From an uncultured Gammaproteobacteria bacterium (GTDB lineage: Bacteria; Patescibacteriota; Microgenomatia; JALYQM01), in assembly GCA_964535655.1 (NCBI GenBank), contig CAZHTP010000001.1:31515-95514 (forward strand): a stretch of 64,000 nucleotides of DNA, read 5' to 3'. Positions within the stretch are counted from its first letter, which is position 1, and every line of letters starts with the position of its first letter. Both the position numbers and the translations under genes were made by a program. The notes below the pieces were generated by a model. It ran no database searches. It had not been told where the DNA came from and was given only the letters and a program-made list of their open reading frames with translations. Shown in pieces: positions 15,603 through 60,727 of the stretch.

Positions 15603-16802
15603 ATGATTATTGGATTTGATGCTTCACGTGCATTTATTGCTGAGCGCACCGGGACGGAGAATTACTCTTATAATATCCTAGTCAATTTACTTCAAAATGA
15701 TCGCAGAAATGCATATAAAATATATTTGCGATTACCTCCTGAGTTCTTGGCAAAATCTGTAGACAAAGTGTATAAAGGCAAATCTAAAAAAGAACGAATT
15801 CAGAGCTGGGTTGAAGCTGTGCGCAAGCAGTTGCCTACAACTCAGAATTACCGGCTAATTGTTATTCATAGTACATGGTTGTGGACTCAAGTAGGTCTTG
15901 CTCGGGAATTGTGGAAGTATCCGCCTGATGTTTTATTTATTCCAGCACATACCCTTCCGGTAATTCGTAAGAAACGAATTAAAACTGTCGTTACTATTCA
16001 TGATTTAGGATATGAATATTTGCCACAATATCATCAGTTTCCCCAGAAATTATGGCTAAATCGTTCTACGGAATATGCTGTACAACATGCTTCAGCATTA
16101 ATTGCTGTTTCACAAGCAACCAAGGAAGATTTGATTCATAAACTCCATGCAGATGAAAAAAAAATATCTGTAATTTACGAAGGATTGGGTTGGGATATGC
16201 CGCAAAAGCTTTCTTCCGTTAAACAAGAGATTGCCCAGCTTCACCATTCTTTAGTATCTTCTCACTATATTCTTTTTATCGGGACTATTCAGCCGCGAAA
16301 AAATTTAATCCGTTTAATGCAAGCCTTTTCGAAACTTATTGAAAAGCCCTTCATCAAAAATACCTTTCCCGATTTACAGCTTGCAATAATTGGGAAGCGG
16401 GGGTGGATGTTTGAAGAAACTTTACTTGAGCCGGAAAAGCTAGGAATTACCGATAAAATTCGTTTCCTGGGGAGGCTTCCCGACTCTGAAACGTATTCAC
16501 TTTTGAAAGGTGCACTGTGTTTTGCTTTCCCCTCATTATTTGAAGGTTTTGGTATTCCAATTATTGAGGCTCAAGCTTTACGTGTTCCCGTTGTTACTTC
16601 AGCTAAAAAACCCATGACTGAAGTTGGAGCGGATGCTTGCATGTACGTAGACCCTGAGTCGATAGATAGTATTGCGGATGGGTTGCTCAAGGTTTTGGAA
16701 GATAGTGCTTATGCTACTACACTGCGCAAACGGGGCCTTATAAATATTCAACGTTTTAGTTGGAAGAAAGCGGCAGAGGAGACACTCCGTGTACTTACTT
16801 AA
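15603..16802 (+). CDS. family 4 (GT-B) glycosyltransferase
   Basis: The C-terminal 'FPSLFEGFGIPIIEAQALRVPVVTS' is the GT4 EX7E motif region. Confidence 0.75.
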   Translation: MIIGFDASRAFIAERTGTENYSYNILVNLLQNDRRNAYKIYLRLPPEFLAKSVDKVYKGKSKKERIQSWVEAVRKQLPTTQNYRLIVIHSTWLWTQVGLARELWKYPPDVLFIPAHTLPVIRKKRIKTVVTIHDLGYEYLPQYHQFPQKLWLNRSTEYAVQHASALIAVSQATKEDLIHKLHADEKKISVIYEGLGWDMPQKLSSVKQEIAQLHHSLVSSHYILFIGTIQPRKNLIRLMQAFSKLIEKPFIKNTFPDLQLAIIGKRGWMFEETLLEPEKLGITDKIRFLGRLPDSETYSLLKGALCFAFPSLFEGFGIPIIEAQALRVPVVTSAKKPMTEVGADACMYVDPESIDSIADGLLKVLEDSAYATTLRKRGLINIQRFSWKKAAEETLRVLT

Positions 16803-51331: not shown

Positions 51332-51423
51332 ACAATAATACTATCACATTCTTTTTAAATTAGAAAGAGAAAAAGAGTCTTGTCAGGATGTCGTTTTTAT
51401 TGCATACTCAATTTTAATTAAAT

Positions 51424-51573
51424 ACATCAAGAGTGATAGGGAGAGTTCCGGCTCGTTAATCTATCCAGCAACCGATTCAATTAGAAAACGGTGCTCCATC
51501 CGGCCCGAAAGGGAAGATGCGGTCATGTACATGACAATTTAGCCTCGTCTTCCTAGTAGGGAGAGAGGTTTTT
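51424..51573 (+). promoter_or_regulatory. SAM-I (S-box) riboswitch with terminator/SD-sequestering hairpin upstream of metK
   Basis: 'AUCAAGAG..AGGGAG..GGC..UUAAUCUAUCCAGCAACC....CGGUGCUCCAUCCGGCCCGAAAGGGAAGAUG' matches the S-box conserved segments (AUCAAGAG, GCAACC, GGUGCU, GAAAG..GAUG). Hairpin 'cctcgtcttcc..gggagagagg' plus a T7 run lies immediately before the metK ATG. The promoter 'ttgtca-17-catact' is at ~51380-51408. Confidence 0.55.
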
Positions 51574-51575
51574 TT

Positions 51576-52691
51576 ATGGCTACAATAAGCCGTTCGTTTA
51601 CTTCTGAGAGTGTTTGTGCTGGGCACCCCGATAAAATATGTGATCAAATTAGCGATGCGATAGTTGATGCAGTGTTGCATGAAGATCCCTACGGTCGTGT
51701 AGCAATAGAAACATTAGTTACAACTAATAAGGTTATTTTGGCAGGCGAAGTAACTAGCCGTGCTGTTATCGATTATGCAAGAGTTGCGCGAGATCAAATT
51801 GAAAGATTAGGTTACACAGATGATAAATATGGTTTTTCTCATAAAGCATTAATAGATGTATATATTCATGAACAGTCATCCGAGATTGCAGTTGGTGTAG
51901 ATGATGCTGGAGCTGGTGATCAAGGGATGATGTTTGGCTATGCTTGCCGTGAAACAAATAATTTTATGCCGATGCCTATTGCTATTGCTCACGCACTCAC
52001 TGCGCGGATTGACGAAGTGCGCGAAGAGAAGCTATTACCATATCTTCGTCCTGATGGAAAAGCTCAAGTGACTGTTGGCTATGACAATGATGTACCTGTT
52101 GAAATTGTATCGGTTGTTTTAGCAGTTCCTCATGAAGAATCGGAAGAATTGGAAAAAGTGAAAGATGATCTTTACCGGCAGGTTGTTTTGCCTGTTCTTT
52201 CGGGATTTGAGCTATCCTATCCGCAATTTCATTTAATAGTTAATGGAACCGGTGTTTGGCATATTGGTGGGCCGGCGTCAGACACCGGAGTGACGGGACG
52301 AAAAATTGTAGTGGACACCTATGGAGGGTATGCTCGAGTAGGGGGTGGAGCCTTTAGTGGCAAAGATCCTACAAAAGTTGATCGCTCGGGTGCATATGCT
52401 GCTCGGTATCTGGCGAAGAATCTCGTTGCTCACCGTTTTGCGGATAAGGCGGAAGTCTCACTTGCGTATTTTATTGGAGCTAAAAAGCCGGTAATGCAGG
52501 AAGTAGAAACCTTTGGTACGGCTAAGAAATCTGATCAAGAGATTAAAGCCTTTGTATCTGAATTGTTGGATACTTCAGTTCAGGGGATTCTGGAAGGGCT
52601 GCAGTTGCGAAAACCATTGTACTTAGCTACTGCTACTTATGGTCACTTTGGACGCAAGGGCTTCCCGTGGGAGGAAATAGTTCAGAAATAA
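51576..52691 (+). CDS. metK: S-adenosylmethionine synthase
   Basis: 'FTSESVCAGHPDKICDQISDAIVDAVL' and 'GGGAFSGKDPTKVDRSGAYAARYLAKNLVA' are canonical MetK motifs. Confidence 0.93.
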   Translation: MATISRSFTSESVCAGHPDKICDQISDAIVDAVLHEDPYGRVAIETLVTTNKVILAGEVTSRAVIDYARVARDQIERLGYTDDKYGFSHKALIDVYIHEQSSEIAVGVDDAGAGDQGMMFGYACRETNNFMPMPIAIAHALTARIDEVREEKLLPYLRPDGKAQVTVGYDNDVPVEIVSVVLAVPHEESEELEKVKDDLYRQVVLPVLSGFELSYPQFHLIVNGTGVWHIGGPASDTGVTGRKIVVDTYGGYARVGGGAFSGKDPTKVDRSGAYAARYLAKNLVAHRFADKAEVSLAYFIGAKKPVMQEVETFGTAKKSDQEIKAFVSELLDTSVQGILEGLQLRKPLYLATATYGHFGRKGFPWEEIVQK

Positions 52692-52759
52692 GCCCAATTA
52701 ATTTGCTGAATGTTGCCTGGGCTTAGGTTTTTGTGGTACTATTGGCGTTAGTTTTTGAA

Positions 52760-52830
52760 TGCCGGATGGTGAAATGGTATCACAAAGGACTCTGAATCCT
52801 TTTTTCTAGGTTCGAATCCTAGTCCGGCAA
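52760..52830 (+). tRNA. tRNA-Gln (CTG), compact 71-nt form
   Basis: Cloverleaf. Acceptor is TGCCGGA/TCCGGCA with a U1-A72 pair as in bacterial tRNA-Gln. D-stem is GTGA/TCAC. Anticodon stem is AAGGA/TCCTT with loop CTCTGAA (anticodon CUG). A 4-nt variable loop, T-arm CTAGG-TTCGAAT-CCTAG. No encoded CCA. Confidence 0.75.
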
Positions 52831-52868
52831 CAATCTGACTTGCAAATAGAACCTGGTATACTTATTCC

Positions 52869-53408
52869 ATGAATATTATTTTGTCTGCACACTTTGATTT
52901 AGCACATCCTGTTATGTGTATTCGGTTAAACTCTGAAAAGCTATCTGGACTAGTTGATAACTTTGCGGGGGTTTTTGCATCGTATCAAGTATCGAGAAAG
53001 ACCGGAGTTCCCGTTTATTTCACTAATTACGAAGAGCTTGACTATGATGGTGCTATCTCAGTTGCGGAGAAGCTAGATAAAGAAACTATTGTGATTGTTG
53101 TGGATACTATCAAAGAATCGGATATTTCTGGAAAAGGTGCAAGTATAGCAAATGTATATGATCTTGATGTTTCTGGTATCAAAGAAACGTTGAGAGAATC
53201 GGTTCATTATATTGAGGGTCTTTTTGAAGAAACAGAAGATGAAACATGGATCTATGGTCACCAATTTGGCCTTAAGACTTTATACTTTGGAATACCTATT
53301 CCCGGAGAATATCATTCCGTAGATAACGCTATACTGTTGGAGAAGATCGATAATGCTGCTGAAATTCTTGGTAAATTAGTAAGCTATCTTCAAGTCGTTC
53401 GAGAGTAA
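52869..53408 (+). CDS. hypothetical protein
   Basis: A 179-aa soluble ORF ('MNIILSAHFDLAHP...'). No motif assigned with confidence. Confidence 0.4.
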   Translation: MNIILSAHFDLAHPVMCIRLNSEKLSGLVDNFAGVFASYQVSRKTGVPVYFTNYEELDYDGAISVAEKLDKETIVIVVDTIKESDISGKGASIANVYDLDVSGIKETLRESVHYIEGLFEETEDETWIYGHQFGLKTLYFGIPIPGEYHSVDNAILLEKIDNAAEILGKLVSYLQVVRE

Positions 53409-53508
53409 AATAGGTTCGAGCGTTGTCTAAGACCTGCAACTTAGATTATAGATAAGCCTTTTTATTTTGATAAGAATATTTCAAGGTTGTTTGTGGTATC
53501 ATAATATT

Positions 53509-53799
53509 ATGAGTGATTTAATATCTAAGAATTTACATAGTATCAATGATTTATGCCAAGATTTTGGAATTAGCTACTTGGGATTATTTGGCTCTCAAGC
53601 TCGCGGTGATGCACGAGAGGATAGTGATGTGGATATTCTGGTCGAATTTAAGGAAACACCAGGATTGATAGAATTTATCAGGACAAAACAGAGGTTAGAA
53701 CAAATTCTTAATAAAAAAGTAGATTTAGTCACCCGACGCGGGCTATCTAAACATTTGTCTAGTTATGTAAATCAGGACTTACAAAAGATATATGGTTAA
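53509..53799 (+). CDS. minimal nucleotidyltransferase (MNT/MntA-type antitoxin)
   Basis: 'LGLFGSQARGDAREDSDVDILVEF' is the GSx(n)DxD NTase motif, and 'KVDLVTRRGL' is present. It overlaps the downstream HEPN gene by 8 nt. The start was set at an internal Met. Confidence 0.75.
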   Translation: MSDLISKNLHSINDLCQDFGISYLGLFGSQARGDAREDSDVDILVEFKETPGLIEFIRTKQRLEQILNKKVDLVTRRGLSKHLSSYVNQDLQKIYG

Positions 53800-54142
53800 A
53801 GATCCACATGTTTTTCTGGCTCATATAATTGAAGCAGTAGGGTTAATAGAAAGCTATGTTGCAGGTGTTACTTTTGAACAGTTTGAGCATGATACTAAAA
53901 CGAGAGATGCGGTCATTCGTCAGTTGGAAATAATAGGAGAGGCAGTATCAAATTTGGAGCAGGATTTTCGTTCTGAGTATGCTGAGATCCCTTGGAGGGA
54001 AATCAGTGATTTTCGCAATGTGTTGGCGCATGAGTATTGGGATATCGATATCGAAATTGTTTGGAAAGCGGCTACGGAAGAAGCCCCTGAATTGAAAAAG
54101 GCAATTATTCATATCATACCAAATTCTGAAATAAATCCTTAA
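53792..54142 (+). CDS. HepT/DUF86 HEPN-domain toxin
   Basis: Rx4HxY motif 'RNVLAHEYWDID'. Size and position downstream of the MNT are typical of type VII HepT/MntA TA pairs. Confidence 0.75.
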   Translation: MVKDPHVFLAHIIEAVGLIESYVAGVTFEQFEHDTKTRDAVIRQLEIIGEAVSNLEQDFRSEYAEIPWREISDFRNVLAHEYWDIDIEIVWKAATEEAPELKKAIIHIIPNSEINP

Positions 54143-54278
54143 GATAATTTGTGTCTTTACTTAATAGCAGTATGTTTTCCAGATAAGTAGTTCGAAATGT
54201 GTCCACTAGTGGCAACATTGTTTTATTAAAGCCATTATCATATGTCTGATAATGTTAAAAAAATAAACATATTACAAT

Positions 54279-54503
54279 GTGATTGATATGGATTTTCAAT
54301 ATAAATATCAGGCTATATATCTTGATATATTTGGGTCAGTGTATTGTGGAGATCAGACTCAGATTTTGGATATTGATTTGTTAGTTAAATTTTCTCCAGA
54401 AAATAAGAGCGGGCTATTCGCCTTGTCGGCAATGAGGGATGAGTTGCAAGGAGTATTGGGACGAAAAATGGATTTGCTTGCGGAAGGTATCTCAGGAACA
54501 TAA
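54279..54503 (+). pseudogene. truncated orphan MNT-like nucleotidyltransferase
   Basis: 'FGSVYCGDQTQILDIDLLVKF' and 'LGRKMDLLAEGIS' match MNT. It ends about 25 aa early and no HEPN partner follows. Confidence 0.5.
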
Positions 54504-54677
54504 AAGTTGTGCACTTACTTTTTTGGCCATTGGACATCGTCATCATTGAAGACGTTTGAGTGATGGCTCTTCTTGGCACCAGGATTGGATGCTTCATAGG
54601 ATTGAAGTAGAACCCATTGCGTGTTATATTTCGCAATATGCCAAATCCAGAATATCTGTTGTTACTTCCTCAGCCTC

Positions 54678-55013
54678 CTAGTGTCTTTGAGGTATAACTA
54701 AACCATTTATCAGATGATCATCACTTGGATGAATGTAGATCGGAGGGTAGTTCTTTGAAGATTCAGAGTAAAGAACTATTCTTTCATTATGGGTATCATA
54801 ATTGAACTTTTTGATATTTGCGCAACTGTCAATGATTGATAAGATGTAATCACCGTTTTTAGGATTTGTTTTGTTGCTATCTACTAACAAATAGTCACCT
54901 TCCTCAACATTTTTACCATTAATATGCGCTTTATCCATAGAATCGCCTTCTGCACGCAAATGTAGAATACCCGCATGAAGAAGCTGAGCGGGGATTTGGC
55001 TATAGTGTCTCAC
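54678..55013 (-). pseudogene. LexA/UmuD-like S24 peptidase domain lacking N-terminal HTH and cleavage-site region (GTG start; possible remnant)
   Basis: 'LLHAGILHLRAEGDSMDKAHI' has the catalytic Ser in a GDSM-type motif. The later 'NIKKF' carries the catalytic Lys. The ORF begins right at the protease core, and upstream frames show no HTH. Confidence 0.5.
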
Positions 55014-55292
55014 TGCTTTTTGATTGCTCCGTACCTGATACTACGTTTACTCGTGATGAACAGATAGAGTTTTTCCTTTCGACACCAGAGAATACTGTGG
55101 AAGAGCAGAAAAAATTAATTTCTGACTTGGGGGATGTACGCCGTCGTGATCTTTTTCATTTTCATTATTACAGTGCACTAAAATAAGATTCCGTCCTGTC
55201 TCATTCGATCGAGATATTCGAGAATCGGGTAGAGTTGATCTACGTGATGAATAAATGCAATATATCGTTCATCGGTGGTTTTCCTTCATTTT

Positions 55293-56081
55293 TTACCCTT
55301 CATTTCGTGCGAATTGTCCTGTTTCTTTTGATGTTTCAAACAGTTTGTTAAAGATAATAATTGCGAGTATGAGGTATAGTATTGAGAGTAGCGCAGCAAT
55401 TAAAAACTGTCCATATCCTTCTTTTTTATTCACAAGTAACGCTCGTGCTCCTTCGAAGATATAAGTCGGAGGTAATGTTAAGGCTATTTTCTGTAAAATA
55501 TAAGGAAGAGTTTTTACAGGATAGAATGCTGCTACAAGTGGCTGTAGGATAGAAATAAAACCCCAGGCGAGCGCTTGAATTTTAGTCCCAAAGCGGAAAA
55601 TGAATCCGAGCAACATGATTCCCAGAGCAACTCCAAAAAGCATTAAATTGAAAATTATTATAAGTAAAGGCATAAATCCTAGTGAAAGTAAATTAAAACC
55701 AAAGGAGTATGATACTGCGATTGAGCTTATAGTCAAGACTAAAAGCGCCTTTACTAACCCCGTTATTGCGTGTGCAAGCAGATATTCTTGCAATCGAATA
55801 GGCGAGACAAACATATTGCTTAAGTTTCTTGACCAAACATTCCAAAGACTTGGTACGGTGATGCTATATTGCATCACAAACATCGCCTGCCATAGTAGCA
55901 TACCCATAATTACATAGTTGGAGGCGGCTTTGTTGCCTGCTCCAGAAAGATAGGTGGCTAAGAAACCGAAAACAACTATACTTAATATCGGCATTACAGC
56001 AATGTCAAAAAAAGTTTCGACAGAACGGCGTGTTAGAAAGAATTCCTGTAATAATATTCCCTTAACTCTTTGAAAATTCAT
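55293..56081 (-). CDS. ABC-2 type exporter permease
   Basis: A six-TM hydrophobic protein translationally coupled downstream of an ABC ATPase. Confidence 0.7.
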   Translation of the reverse strand: MNFQRVKGILLQEFFLTRRSVETFFDIAVMPILSIVVFGFLATYLSGAGNKAASNYVIMGMLLWQAMFVMQYSITVPSLWNVWSRNLSNMFVSPIRLQEYLLAHAITGLVKALLVLTISSIAVSYSFGFNLLSLGFMPLLIIIFNLMLFGVALGIMLLGFIFRFGTKIQALAWGFISILQPLVAAFYPVKTLPYILQKIALTLPPTYIFEGARALLVNKKEGYGQFLIAALLSILYLILAIIIFNKLFETSKETGQFARNEG

Positions 56082-56084
56082 AGA

Positions 56085-57008
56085 TTATTCCGATCGTGCG
56101 ATCTGTAAAAATACATCTTCCAGGTTTGGTTTGACAATTTCAATATCTGCTATCTCTACTCCTTTACCGCCAAGTTCAAGAATTAGCGGAGCGATATTAT
56201 TTTCTTCTGTTTTGATGTGAACTTTATTATGATCTTTTATATCGTAAATTAAACTTTTTTCGATTAATATCTTTTCGGTATGTTCTTTATTTCTTACTAT
56301 TAAAACTAACGATGAGGTATCGACATTTTTTGTTAAGTTTTCAGGCGTATCATGAGCTACAATTTTTCCTTTATCAAGAAAAATAACTTCATCACAGATT
56401 CGGGTAATTTCATCCATATTATGGCTGGTGTACAGAATTGATAGATTCCGCTCTTTACGCAATTTTTCAATTAGAGATAGTGTTTTGTCAGCTACATCAG
56501 GATCAAGCGAAGCAGTAGGTTCATCCATTAAAATTAATTCAGGATCGTTTACTAATGATTTAATTAAATTTACGCGTGTTTTTTGACCTGCAGAAAGATT
56601 CCAATATACCTCATTCTTAATTTCATCCAGTTCAAAGTACTCGCCTAATTCGGCAACTTTTTTTTGAGGATTTTTAACACCGTACAAATTCGCGTAGACT
56701 ATCAGATTTTCATAAACCGAAATACGACCAAGTAAGGTATTAAAGGCCGAGGTGAAGTTAATCTTTGATAAGGATGCTTCTTTATTGTATTTAAATTCTT
56801 TATCAAAGTAGCGGATAGTTCCCGAGGTTTCTTTGGTTACTCCGATAAGAATTTGAATTGTTGTCGTTTTTCCTGCGCCATTAGGACCTAAAAAACCGAT
56901 AACTTTACCGCGTGGTACATTAAAGGATATGTCGTTAACGGCGACATAATTCTTATATTTTTTTACTAGATGTGAGACTTCTAACACATTATCAGCTTTT
57001 TTAACCAT
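56085..57008 (-). CDS. ABC transporter ATP-binding protein
   Basis: Walker A 'GPNGAGKTTTIQIL', signature 'LSAGQKTRVNL', Walker B 'ILMDEPTASLD'. Confidence 0.85.
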   Translation of the reverse strand: MVKKADNVLEVSHLVKKYKNYVAVNDISFNVPRGKVIGFLGPNGAGKTTTIQILIGVTKETSGTIRYFDKEFKYNKEASLSKINFTSAFNTLLGRISVYENLIVYANLYGVKNPQKKVAELGEYFELDEIKNEVYWNLSAGQKTRVNLIKSLVNDPELILMDEPTASLDPDVADKTLSLIEKLRKERNLSILYTSHNMDEITRICDEVIFLDKGKIVAHDTPENLTKNVDTSSLVLIVRNKEHTEKILIEKSLIYDIKDHNKVHIKTEENNIAPLILELGGKGVEIADIEIVKPNLEDVFLQIARSE

Positions 57009-57084
57009 ATCTGGCTATTATACCTTATACTAAAAAATATTTAAGCTTGACATGTCACAGTAGCACTATTACGCTAGTTATACG

Positions 57085-58698
57085 ATGAAAAAACGTTACT
57101 ATATTGTAATAATTTCTTTGACTGCGGTGCTATCTCTTTCAATTGTCTTTTTTACCCAAAATTTTCGAGTATCATCTTTTCTGAGAAGTTTTGATACTTC
57201 GAGCGCACAATCTGCGCCTTGTACCAGTGCAACACTTAATGCCATTGGAGCGAGAAGTGGTGCCTCCTTTACCACGGAAGTCGGATGTATGCAGTCGGGA
57301 ACACAAATTTATCTGAATGACAGCCAGTATACTTTTTTTCAGGCTCCTTCTTCTCTTGCCTCTAAAGGCGTTGCCTACATTAAAACTCCTAATAGTGAAG
57401 TAATGAATTCTCCGTTGAATTGGAGTGTGAATATTACCACGCCTTCAGATGTTTATATTTTTTATCGTAAAATTCCAGGAATTTTGCCTCCTAATTGGAT
57501 TACGTCGTCGTATATAAAACAGACTCCAGAGTCATTTTCGGACTTAGCTCCTTTTTTGTTGCGCAAAAATAGTAACGGATTGATTGGTGTGTATGATGTG
57601 TATAAACTTCAGACTTTAAATAAAGTTGGAGTATTGGATTTGCATGATGCAATTCCATCTAACAATATTACAGCATATTCTATGTATATCGTTGGTGTTG
57701 TGCCAAATAACCCCAATAATACGACTAACCCTACGGCCTCCGTTACTCCGACGACAACTGCAAGGCCTACAAGTGCACCAACGACTCCAACTCATACAGA
57801 ACCGCCTGTTTCAGGTGACTTTCCTTGTGGTAAATATCCAAATGCTAATCCAGGGTGCATGCCAGTGTCGTTTCAATCATGGTTTGATAATGTTCCTGCT
57901 TCGGCCGAAACAATGAATGTTAACTATACACCACGTCTTGTACATCAGCACTATGAGTGCAATGTGCCTGCTGTTCGTGCTAATGGGCAATACTTAAAGC
58001 AAGGAATGAAGATAGTTTGCCAGTTTGTTAGATATAACAGTATTATTCCTTTTAACAGTGGCAATTCGTCGTGGTTTCGATCTCAGAATCAAGGTAGCAC
58101 GTATGAGCAATTTACAATGAATTTGGCTCCGTGTCAGGGTAATAAATACGAGGGAAAAGAATGTAAATCTGAAAATGTCCATACGGTTCGTGCTAGCGAT
58201 TTTTCGAGCGCTACTGAGATGCGCTATACTCCTAATACTAATTTTGCGGGAATGGGTGGACAACGTCACTTCTTGTCGTCTAACTGGCAAACTGGAATTG
58301 GATACCGAAGCTCTTCGGAATTTACTTCTCGTTATTGGATTGGTGAATGTGGTAATTATCAGCGAATGATTTTAAGCACAGTTGATAAATACATGCGAGG
58401 AAACGAACCAATAGCTACTGTAAGAGGTACGATTACACTTCCATTTGAATCTAATGGAGGTTGTGGGACACAATTTAAAACTTTTGTGTTCTTAGATCCA
58501 GCTCAGCATGTGACGGTTGCTGGAACTCAAACAGGCACTACTTTATTTGAATCGAATTCTCATGTTAAAACTAATTTAACCTGGGATACGACTAAAACTA
58601 CTAATGGACTGCATAGCTTGCTTTTTATCAATATGGAAGGTACTGGTAAGTATGTTTCGGCCTCAGGAGTAGCGGTCAAATATATAGTTCAAAATTAG
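57085..58698 (+). CDS. secreted hypothetical protein with Thr/Pro-rich linker
   Basis: Signal peptide 'IVIISLTAVLSLSIVFF'. Linker 'NPNNTTNPTASVTPTTTARPTSAPTTPTHTEPP'. A Cys-containing C-terminal domain. Confidence 0.55.
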   Translation: MKKRYYIVIISLTAVLSLSIVFFTQNFRVSSFLRSFDTSSAQSAPCTSATLNAIGARSGASFTTEVGCMQSGTQIYLNDSQYTFFQAPSSLASKGVAYIKTPNSEVMNSPLNWSVNITTPSDVYIFYRKIPGILPPNWITSSYIKQTPESFSDLAPFLLRKNSNGLIGVYDVYKLQTLNKVGVLDLHDAIPSNNITAYSMYIVGVVPNNPNNTTNPTASVTPTTTARPTSAPTTPTHTEPPVSGDFPCGKYPNANPGCMPVSFQSWFDNVPASAETMNVNYTPRLVHQHYECNVPAVRANGQYLKQGMKIVCQFVRYNSIIPFNSGNSSWFRSQNQGSTYEQFTMNLAPCQGNKYEGKECKSENVHTVRASDFSSATEMRYTPNTNFAGMGGQRHFLSSNWQTGIGYRSSSEFTSRYWIGECGNYQRMILSTVDKYMRGNEPIATVRGTITLPFESNGGCGTQFKTFVFLDPAQHVTVAGTQTGTTLFESNSHVKTNLTWDTTKTTNGLHSLLFINMEGTGKYVSASGVAVKYIVQN

Positions 58699-58705
58699 GA
58701 TACTT

Positions 58706-59290
58706 ATGAGAAGAAAGAATCAATCTTTAATTGTGACTATAATATTAGTAATTGTTGCGGTAGTTGTTTTTATTTTTTCGCAATATCGTGGAACGAATTC
58801 TGTCGAACCAATTGGGGCCGCAGATCGTATTCCTAAAAAGCAATTATCAGATGTAGAAGTATTAGAAACTGTTAGTTTTAGTGCTGTAATTCCACAGTTT
58901 CGTTTAAATGTTCAGGCAGATAACGCCTTATATATACCAACTAGAATTGCGTTAATTGACAAAACTACGCGTGCTACTCGAATGGAGTTGCCTGTTACTG
59001 ACTCCCAATATCCCAGTGAATGTATGACACATAAGAAAATGGATGGACATGATCAAATGCGAATGTCGATGAAAAAATGGAATACTGATTGGTTTACGCT
59101 GCCAGAGCTTGGACCACTTGATGCGAGTTATACTCCTAAATTATCTTCAAATTATTTAGTTGAATTAACGTATTCGGATTCCTCTGTAGCGTATGTTAGT
59201 GTTAATGAGATTAAAGATGTTTGTTATCAGGTTTCAAAAAATGACCCCATGATTCCGAACGCCCGTGACGAGGTACCCGAAAAAGAATGA
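58706..59290 (+). CDS. membrane-anchored hypothetical protein
   Basis: N-terminal TM 'LIVTIILVIVAVVVFIF'. Co-oriented with and adjacent to the upstream secreted protein. Confidence 0.45.
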   Translation: MRRKNQSLIVTIILVIVAVVVFIFSQYRGTNSVEPIGAADRIPKKQLSDVEVLETVSFSAVIPQFRLNVQADNALYIPTRIALIDKTTRATRMELPVTDSQYPSECMTHKKMDGHDQMRMSMKKWNTDWFTLPELGPLDASYTPKLSSNYLVELTYSDSSVAYVSVNEIKDVCYQVSKNDPMIPNARDEVPEKE

Positions 59291-59817
59291 TTTCACACCA
59301 ATTAATTTCTCTTTTTGTAACCCTTAGTTTTTTCTTTTGGGCACTTTTTATGGTGCTCTCGATTATCAAGGGGGCTCCATTTATTCGTTCAACTAAAAAA
59401 CGGATTTCAGGAATACTAGATCTTGCTGAAGCAGCAACTACTGATCGTGTTTTAGACTTAGGCTCTGGTGATGGATCTATACCGATTGCTTTTGCTCAAA
59501 AAGGAATTCGAGCCGATGGTTGTGAAATAAATTTTTTCCTTGTCGTTTACTCTCGAATTCGCGCACAGCTTCTTCATTTAGATACTCTTTCGCATTTTTA
59601 CTGGGGAAATATGTGGCGATATGACACTGGTGGTTATTCGGTTGTTACCGTCTATGGCTTCCCATCAATTATGGCTGATTTAGAAAAAAAACTACTCAAA
59701 GAACTTGCTCCTGGTTCGCGGGTAATTTCTAACTCGTTCCAATTTCCCAATTGGAAAGCCGAAAGAGTCGAAGGTTCGCTCTTTCTTTATATTGTTCCTT
59801 CTTCATATCAAAATTAG
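59287..59817 (+). CDS. small membrane-anchored class I SAM-dependent methyltransferase-like protein
   Basis: An N-terminal TM is followed by motif I 'VLDLGSGDGSIPIAFA'. The gene overlaps the upstream stop by 4 nt. Confidence 0.5.
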   Translation: MISHQLISLFVTLSFFFWALFMVLSIIKGAPFIRSTKKRISGILDLAEAATTDRVLDLGSGDGSIPIAFAQKGIRADGCEINFFLVVYSRIRAQLLHLDTLSHFYWGNMWRYDTGGYSVVTVYGFPSIMADLEKKLLKELAPGSRVISNSFQFPNWKAERVEGSLFLYIVPSSYQN

Positions 59818-59868
59818 TTCATGAACTTATCACCTGCTCATTTTTCATTTTTATGATATATTCATACT

Positions 59869-60489
59869 ATGAGTACACCTGAATCATTAACAACTAAAAA
59901 ATATATACAAAGTTTTTTTGCAGAATTTATTGGAACGTTATTTCTTTCTCTTGTTATTATAACGTTGGCAGGAGGATCCAGGGCAGAGTGGACGCCTTTT
60001 GCTGTAGGTGCATTAATCGCCTTAATGATTTATTTGCTAGGAAGCGTGAGCGGCGGTCAATTTAATCCAAGTGTTACCGTTGGGCTTGTGTCAGCTGGCC
60101 TAATTTCCTGGAAGCAGGGTTTGGTTAATATTTGTGGTCAGATAGTCGGGGCTTTAGCTGGTTTTTGGATAAGTGTGCGTTATTTGGCTATGGAAATGCA
60201 GTTTCCTGAAGCACATAGTAATGAATGGCTGTACGAGATGTTAGGGGCGTTTCTCCTTTCTTTTGCTGTTGCCGCTGCTTTGCGCAAACAGATATCGCCT
60301 GCGATTTCAGGAATAGTTGTTGGAATGGCATTAACGTTAGGTATATTATTGTCTGAGCCAGTTAGTGGTGGAGTACTCAATCCAGCTATCGCACTTGGCG
60401 GACAGATCTATTCGTGGGACTATATTATTGCACCGCTCCTTGGAGGAATACTTGCTCAATATGCCTATTACGCTTTGATTCGAGAATAG
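59869..60489 (+). CDS. MIP-family channel (aquaporin/glycerol facilitator-like)
   Basis: A first 'SGGQFNPSVT' (NPA-box variant NPS) and a second 'GVLNPAIALG' sit in a six-TM protein. Confidence 0.7.
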   Translation: MSTPESLTTKKYIQSFFAEFIGTLFLSLVIITLAGGSRAEWTPFAVGALIALMIYLLGSVSGGQFNPSVTVGLVSAGLISWKQGLVNICGQIVGALAGFWISVRYLAMEMQFPEAHSNEWLYEMLGAFLLSFAVAAALRKQISPAISGIVVGMALTLGILLSEPVSGGVLNPAIALGGQIYSWDYIIAPLLGGILAQYAYYALIRE

Positions 60490-60566
60490 TTATTGAAAGG
60501 ATGCTCCAATGAAGATACTCTAAATATATATTTATATTTGATACATTTTAAAGGAGTGTGATTTAT

Positions 60567-60635
60567 ATGGCTAAAGGTGAAAATCGCGATAAAAGTAATA
60601 AAAATAAGAAGAAACCTAAGAAAGATAAAAAGTAG
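60567..60635 (+). CDS. 22-aa lysine-rich microprotein 'MAKGENRDKSNKNKKKPKKDKK'
   Basis: A strong SD 'aaaggag' lies 9 nt upstream of the ATG. A perfect terminator hairpin follows immediately. It was not in the ORF track because it is below the length cut-off. Confidence 0.45.
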   Translation: MAKGENRDKSNKNKKKPKKDKK

Positions 60636-60648
60636 GCTTTTTCGTTTT

Positions 60649-60676
60649 GGCCCCTTACAAAGTAAGGGGCTTTTTT
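60649..60676 (+). terminator. rho-independent terminator after the microprotein ORF
   Basis: 'ggcccctta-caaa-gtaaggggc' followed by tttttt. Confidence 0.55.
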
Positions 60677-60727
60677 ATTGCTTTTCAGTCTTGTAATTCG
60701 GGTTATATTTGCTAGTATGAGATAACT

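Follow-up and report, generated by a model that had tools for sequence, protein, structure and literature searches.

A probable fast-turnover slot beside tRNA-Gln carries a divergent HepT/MNT pair and remnants of two further genes

The locus described here lies within a 64,000-nucleotide stretch of contig CAZHTP010000001.1 (assembly GCA_964535655.1), referred to hereafter as the window, which comes from a genome that is probably of Patescibacteria, to go by the names attached to homologues of its permease; it comprises the interval between a tRNA-Gln gene and an operon of two ATP-binding cassette (ABC) transporter genes. A first-pass annotation of the same DNA had pointed to a decayed patch downstream of the tRNA and of one small hypothetical gene, made up of an intact overlapping pair of minimal nucleotidyltransferase (MNT) and HepT genes with type VII toxin-antitoxin architecture, a second MNT-like gene ending early and lacking a HEPN partner, a minus-strand S24 peptidase core without a DNA-binding domain, and some 250 bp encoding nothing recognisable. 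Profile searches for HEPN/MNT and S24 recovered every domain that it had called, and both of its truncation calls proved correct on comparison with the closest full-length relatives. Two amendments are needed: the antitoxin gene probably begins further downstream, and the small gene beside the tRNA, which is indeed present (orf179), is an intact member of a conserved family rather than part of the decay. The features of the locus are as follows.

51419-51551: SAM-I/IV riboswitch
51576-52691: metK
52760-52831, plus strand: tRNA-Gln (anticodon CTG), left anchor of the variable slot (ARAGORN; Rfam, 67.5 bits)
52869-53408, plus strand: orf179, intact conserved gene of 179 amino acids inside the variable slot
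53509-53799, plus strand: MNT1, MntA-type minimal nucleotidyltransferase (antitoxin), 96 amino acids (Pfam NTP_transf_2)
53792-54142, plus strand: HepT, HEPN RNase toxin, 116 amino acids (Pfam HepT-like)
54143-54272: AT-rich spacer between HepT and MNT2
54273-54503, plus strand: MNT2, remnant of a second MntA-type gene (Pfam match within 54279-54503)
54504-54677: unassignable 174 bp, from the MNT2 breakpoint to the S24 stop codon
54678-55013, minus strand: predicted S24 remnant of a LexA/CI-like repressor, with homology reaching 55022 (Pfam Peptidase_S24)
55023-55292: unassignable spacer upstream of the S24 remnant
55293-56081, minus strand: ABC-2 permease, right anchor of the slot (Pfam)
56085-57008, minus strand: ABC ATPase, right anchor, in one operon with the permease (Pfam)

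MNT1 matches Pfam NTP_transf_2 (PF01909) at E=5e-15 and is spanned over its full length by the PADLOC model PDC-S09 (2.7e-26). Translation probably begins at the ATG at 53509, which gives 96 residues, and not at the TTG at 53467 from which the first-pass annotation had counted, because an independent gene call makes the same choice and residue 10 is where the alignment to PDB entry 1WOT, a minimal nucleotidyltransferase, sets in (1.3e-14, residues 10-87). The GSX10DXD motif can be read from the sequence as G28, S29, D40 and D42 (G28-S29-X10-D40-V-D42), with D72 as the third metal-binding aspartate. HepT covers profile positions 1-119 of the 120 in Pfam HepT-like (PF01934, E=1.5e-30), and its translation carries RX4HXY as R75-NVLA-H80-E-Y82. 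MNT1 lies upstream of HepT and the two genes share an 8-nt overlap (ATGGTTAA, 53792-53799).

The motifs GSX10DXD and RX4HXY define Class I (type VII) HEPN/MNT pairs (PMC7641770), and by its domains, motifs and gene arrangement the pair is assignable to this class; it is a divergent member rather than an equivalog, since all three of these features are in place while the NCBIfam equivalog cutoffs are missed. As in the Shewanella oneidensis SO_3166/SO_3165 and Thermococcus cleftensis CL1_0071/0070 pairs (PMC7641770), the nucleotidyltransferase gene precedes and overlaps that of HepT, the products are small (96 and 116 amino acids here) and combine PF01909 with PF01934, the antitoxin bears GSX10DXD, and the toxin bears RX4HXY with the tyrosine that receives adenosine monophosphate (AMP; Y82 here). 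The window pair differs from both in its sequence distance (below both NCBIfam cutoffs) and in its host, a probable Patescibacteria genome. By analogy with these systems, HepT would be an RNase that is inactive when MNT1 transfers AMP units to Tyr82 beside the active site. Function is expected, by inference, of the MNT1/HepT pair alone.

The second nucleotidyltransferase gene, MNT2, has a very different standing. It matches Pfam NTP_transf_2 over 54279-54503 (E=8e-6) and is only 34% identical to MNT1, and so is not a recent duplicate of it. Its closest relative (P0013) is 74% identical, has 98 residues and is followed, in two independent contigs, by an overlapping HepT gene of 109 codons; by tblastn the homology of MNT2 to this protein is confined to residues 5-77 of the 98, leaving the last 21 residues of the fold unaccounted for, and the PADLOC models likewise align at profile positions 18-77 of 97 only. 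At the DNA level, homology to the P0013 locus begins just upstream of the MNT2 reading frame and ends abruptly at about 54490, and downstream of MNT2 no trace of a HepT gene was found by tblastn, by Pfam or by similarity to the loci fetched for comparison. The alignment of the two loci also places an ATA at the ancestral ATG, followed by a 2-nt and a 3-nt indel, and two changes lie close to the active-site motif, a conserved Arg having become Cys (within GSxxRG) and a conserved Ser having become Leu (before DxD). Combined, these lesions form the pattern of a pseudogene, and MNT2 is most likely inert; a deletion would have removed its 3' end together with its HepT partner, on top of the mutation of the original start codon. 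A supposed N-terminal HepT remnant, picked out by eye in an open reading frame of 41 amino acids (54556-54681), was rejected, as neither tblastn nor Pfam supported it. Between the HepT stop codon and MNT2 we also observe, in DNA of low GC content (0.27 over 54143-54278), a near-perfect palindrome, AATGTGTCCACTAGTGGCAACATT, at 54196-54219, which could be a relic operator or terminator.

Truncation of the minus-strand S24 reading frame is at the opposite, N-terminal, end. It encodes 111 amino acids from a GTG at 55013, matches Pfam Peptidase_S24 at E=5e-11 and retains every one of the 22 invariant columns of the family alignment, including those of the Ser/Lys dyad (GDSM and NIKKF). Against the LexA model it aligns at positions 101-196 of 203 only, where a full-length relative (P0007) aligns at 27-201, and identity to its closest relative (P0002, 64%) runs from residue 51 of that protein onward, past the cleavage loop. 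Relatives of 186-221 amino acids consist of an N-terminal winged helix, an 'IVGAANCGPA' cleavage loop and then the S24 domain. Among the best 150 relatives (cluster representatives) the median length is 214 amino acids, 119 have at least 195, and the S24 match mostly sets in around residue 100-120; the window copy is without roughly 75-110 N-terminal residues, that is, without the winged helix and the cleavage loop, and the self-cleavage site itself (GAANCGPA in relatives) falls outside the window homology, which starts after that loop.

The DNA upstream of the GTG offers no replacement. In-frame TAG (55041-55043) and TAA (55047-55049) codons lie nine and eleven codons upstream of the start. 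A profile built from 93 N-terminal domains and run on all six frames of 55014-55292 scored at best -0.2 bits, a value equalled or exceeded by 59% of shuffles, and tblastn for the N-terminal helix-turn-helix (HTH) domain gave no significant match upstream of the S24 frame. An apparent HTH remnant noticed by eye in another frame ('FIHHVDQL' against 'IKHHLNQL', 55232-55255) was discarded: tblastn returned E-values of 2-4, the spacing exceeds that of the relatives by ~70 nt, and the profile of N-terminal domains is at chance. Rescue of the repressor by an alternative genetic code was rejected as well, the blocking stops being TAA and TAG and not TGA. As judged from its sequence, the reading frame represents a LexA/CI-like repressor reduced to its C-terminal domain, a remnant that is most likely inert. 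Deletion or rearrangement would have removed the DNA-binding and self-cleavage parts; uniform neutral decay fits less well, because the C-terminal half is intact and the N-terminal half unrecognisable.

The remnant shares its Ser/Lys dyad with HTH-S24 repressors of the LexA and phage CI type (TIGR00498; PHROG 4), and its closest relatives are HTH-S24 proteins, one of them on a phage contig. It differs from them in having neither DNA-binding domain nor cleavage site, and should therefore be incapable both of operator binding and of inactivation through self-cleavage; not even its full-length relatives reach the LexA equivalog cutoff (85 against 110.95 bits). As a small S24-only polypeptide it also recalls UmuD/UmuD', and it aligns to positions 32-111 of 115 in the NCBIfam UmuD model, but at 39.7 bits against a cutoff of 110; moreover it has no N-terminal arm bearing the cleavage site, no umuC or polymerase gene occurs among its neighbours in the window, and its nearest relatives are HTH-bearing repressors.

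The contexts in which these relatives occur point away from a chromosomal SOS LexA and towards a regulator of the accessory or mobile-element kind, since they sit beside a methyltransferase-like gene, a PemK toxin and phage genes. At two loci (L084, 10001-11521; L085, 1424-2946) a relative lies upstream of a gene for a 312-amino-acid protein with SAM-binding and NPPF methyltransferase motifs, for which Pfam gave no match. At a third (L121, 2-834) the relative overlaps a PemK/MazF-type toxin gene, an arrangement that might amount to a toxin-antitoxin module whose antitoxin can cleave itself. A fourth (L122, 1542-2183) is an IMG/VR viral contig with a full-length relative of 213 amino acids amid genes with PHROG matches, and the family itself matches PHROG repressor families.

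Between and beyond the two remnants lies DNA to which we can assign nothing. The 174 bp at 54504-54677 have no Pfam match in any frame and no tblastx or blastn similarity to the fetched loci; the 279 bp at 55014-55292, corresponding to the featureless ~250 bp of the first-pass annotation, have no Pfam match in any frame, no similarity to those loci and no match to the HTH-domain profile. At permissive thresholds Rfam returned the tRNA as its sole match, and a promoter and terminator scan gave counts at chance level. An 8-bp direct repeat, CCTTCATT (55283-55290 and 55297-55304), flanks the permease stop codon at the edge of the 279-bp spacer.

Orf179 also lies inside the slot and is no part of the decay. 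Relatives are found at 28 metagenome loci (46-66% identity, family length ~180 amino acids), with H8, E55-E56, D79 and H149 invariant and D10 and D30 nearly so, a predicted metal-ligand pattern resembling that of co-catalytic M42/M28 metallopeptidases in a protein of roughly half their size. The match to Pfam M42 (E=0.069) is above no cutoff, a profile search of PDB sequences returned none, and a single-sequence AlphaFold model was set aside at a mean confidence (pLDDT) of 39.5. The neighbourhoods of the 28 loci are unrelated to the window, save for partial synteny in one (L103); they show the gene to be conserved and do not by themselves show the patch to be variable.

Evidence that the interval varies comes from a related locus (L116), reached via homologues of the permease and the only relative with both shared gene order and available DNA. 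Permease and ATPase are 73% identical and in the same order in this relative, which shares one flank with the window (p402, MIP, p194, p537, ATPase and permease) and also the other (tRNA-Gln(CTG), p145, a class-I aminoacyl-tRNA synthetase matching Pfam tRNA-synt_1c, p375 and an S11 peptidase). Between permease and tRNA 3' end, however, it holds 5.7 kb of unrelated genes (PIG-L, His_Phos_1, AHSA1, HTH_20, DUF554, HAD and others) and no MNT, HepT, S24 or orf179. The tRNA and ~50 nt upstream of it are almost identical in window and relative, with homology stopping ~3-8 nt past the tRNA 3' end. Three further relatives differ directly downstream of the permease. The slot (52832-55292) is thus variable at an evolutionary distance of ~73% protein identity, since the flanks are kept while the contents differ in L116 and, downstream of the permease, in the three others; the variable presence that the first-pass annotation had suggested checking is borne out.

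Change also extends to the 5' flank of the tRNA. In the window, and only there, the riboswitch and metK (51419-52691) stand between p145 and the tRNA promoter, the relative having a 138-bp spacer there (16614-16752), and variability is therefore not confined to classical 3'-end integration. A metK scan of species-representative genomes brought up no close relative, its best match having 61% identity and no common gene order. The tRNA-Gln gene and its promoter-like TTGCCT...TGTGGTACTAT are near-identical between window (52710-52831) and relative (16543-16665), the proteins being only ~70% identical. In a locus from a sister sample (L117), which encodes an identical permease protein, the gene calls between PIG-L and His_Phos_1 differ from those of L116 (L117 2048-2690, two small open reading frames; L116 11508-12150, none), which hints at strain-level micro-variation inside the slot of the relative.

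We read the interval from tRNA-Gln to the ABC operon as, most likely, a slot of fast turnover in a probable Patescibacteria genome, which at present holds orf179, an intact MNT1/HepT pair and two truncated remnants. The domain content and motifs, the points of truncation, the loss of the HepT partner and of the HTH domain, and the lack of conservation of the slot are direct observations. Deletion would be the mechanism of truncation, favoured over slow point decay because the breaks in homology are sharp and what is retained is well preserved; the cassettes, for their part, may be of mobile origin. The repeated insertion and erosion proposed by the first-pass annotation thus stands in its second half, erosion being visible in the truncations; insertion by a mobile element we infer only, no integrase or att-like repeat having been found.

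A number of observations weigh against this reading. The intact pair misses its family cutoffs (56 bits for MNT1 against 60 in NCBIfam MntA, NF047752; 48.4 for HepT against 60 in HepT_toxin, NF047751), and a sequence search gave HepT no relative in the PDB. MNT2 retains GSX10DXD (GS-X10-DID), the third Asp and an in-frame ATG, and the S24 frame is open with an intact dyad; with all of these surviving, residual function of either is conceivable, and a comparison of nonsynonymous with synonymous change (dN/dS) found synonymous sites saturated for both. The informative relative is distant, at ~73% protein identity, and for that reason the differences could reflect long-term rearrangement and not recent mobility. 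Marks of mobility are likewise missing, as the first-pass annotation had remarked: no integrase, transposase or recombinase is encoded among the slot reading frames (the main ones over 52869-56081 were scanned, the ATPase by Pfam), no second copy of the 21-nt tRNA 3' end with up to 3 mismatches occurs in the window or in L116, and no flanking repeats at the slot rise above noise. The skew in GC or k-mer content for which it had proposed looking is not there: the window averages 0.389 in GC and the slot 0.364 (z=-1.6), and for tetranucleotides the distance gives z=1.0, both values lying within the normal range of the window, so that composition is unremarkable and native-like.

The same observations bear on the alternative that survives best, namely that the patch is what is left of an integrative element targeting tRNA-Gln (a prophage or genomic island), its integrase and att repeat since deleted. 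Toxin-antitoxin modules are often carried by mobile elements, homology with L116 breaks off no more than a few bases from the tRNA 3' end, slot contents differ between relatives, and one full-length member of the LexA-like family lies on a phage contig, the family also matching PHROG repressors. The locus thereby resembles tRNA-adjacent genomic islands, in that a conserved tRNA 3' end is directly followed by a variable segment containing gene remnants and a toxin-antitoxin cargo. It differs from them in lacking an integrase (in the slot, of window and L116 alike), in the absence of a duplicated tRNA end from either genome, in a composition that does not deviate, and in including a housekeeping-like gene, orf179, which directly beside the tRNA is a conserved gene of the lineage and not phage-like. 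The metK difference on the 5' side, moreover, speaks for general rearrangement around the tRNA. We regard an eroded element as doubtful.

Less probable still, and in our view unlikely, is that the remnants are functional short proteins, MNT2 as an orphan antitoxin (anti-addictive, or cross-neutralising HepT toxins) and the S24 frame as a protease or dimerisation domain working by itself, in the manner of UmuD' or by pairing with a LexA-like repressor to dominant-negative effect. Beyond the motifs and in-frame ATG just mentioned, MNT2 has an upstream GATAAT box, resembling a -10 element, that aligns with TATAAT upstream of the relative's gene; the S24 frame has stayed open for 111 codons in AT-rich DNA with its 22 invariant residues, has a GGAG 13 nt upstream of its GTG, and finds 16 of its best 150 relatives at 140 amino acids or fewer. 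MNT2, however, is without the C-terminal end of its 98-residue fold, has non-conservative changes at family-conserved positions, and has lost its ancestral start to a substitution and indels in the manner typical of a pseudogene. The two short S24 relatives that could be inspected by contig are not natural HTH-less forms, one being cut by a contig end (P0008) and the other (P0002), from a contig of coverage 1, having its HTH region interrupted by a stop codon, and the ATG start chosen by the gene caller for the S24 frame would leave 86 amino acids, excluding the catalytic Ser.

A related and quite improbable extension would have the slot serve, in this probable Patescibacteria lineage, as a place where small cassettes of defence or toxin-antitoxin genes are exchanged without an integrase, MNT2 and the S24 domain being kept on purpose; MNT2 could then be an anti-addiction AMP-transferase, and the S24 domain a non-cleavable dimerisation decoy against the LexA-like repressors of incoming phages or toxin-antitoxin modules.

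That the truncations are artefacts of sequencing, assembly or a chimeric contig is very improbable, even for a metagenome-derived genome, as the defects are not single-base ones (~21 codons and a partner gene are gone from MNT2, ~100 codons from the repressor) and a contig of a second assembly (Logan, run SRR8893623, its reads possibly shared with the window assembly) is 100% identical over 53407-60708, all stop codons included, running unbroken through both remnants and the right edge into the conserved ABC operon, which argues that the stops are not peculiar to one assembler. The left end of this contig falls exactly at 53407, in the orf179 stop codon, which is also the left boundary of the toxin-antitoxin patch; this coincidence could be taken to favour a chimeric join, or it may reflect a branching of the assembly graph between strains. 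Exact look-ups of the HepT and permease proteins led to one other contig only, of the same sequence, and the exact orf179 protein has no record in the collection searched.

Returning to the fast-turnover slot, the locus represents ordinary turnover of toxin-antitoxin and accessory genes and no new system, and what is known of type VII systems or LexA-like repressors is unaltered by it. For annotation, both remnants should be labelled as pseudogenes, and not as 'nucleotidyltransferase' or 'S24 peptidase / LexA'. What is added is a HepT/MntA pair that is divergent and comes from a lineage with few samples, its novelty being that of new divergent members of known families, and a documented variable slot beside tRNA-Gln, whose content changes next to a tRNA and a tRNA promoter that hardly do.

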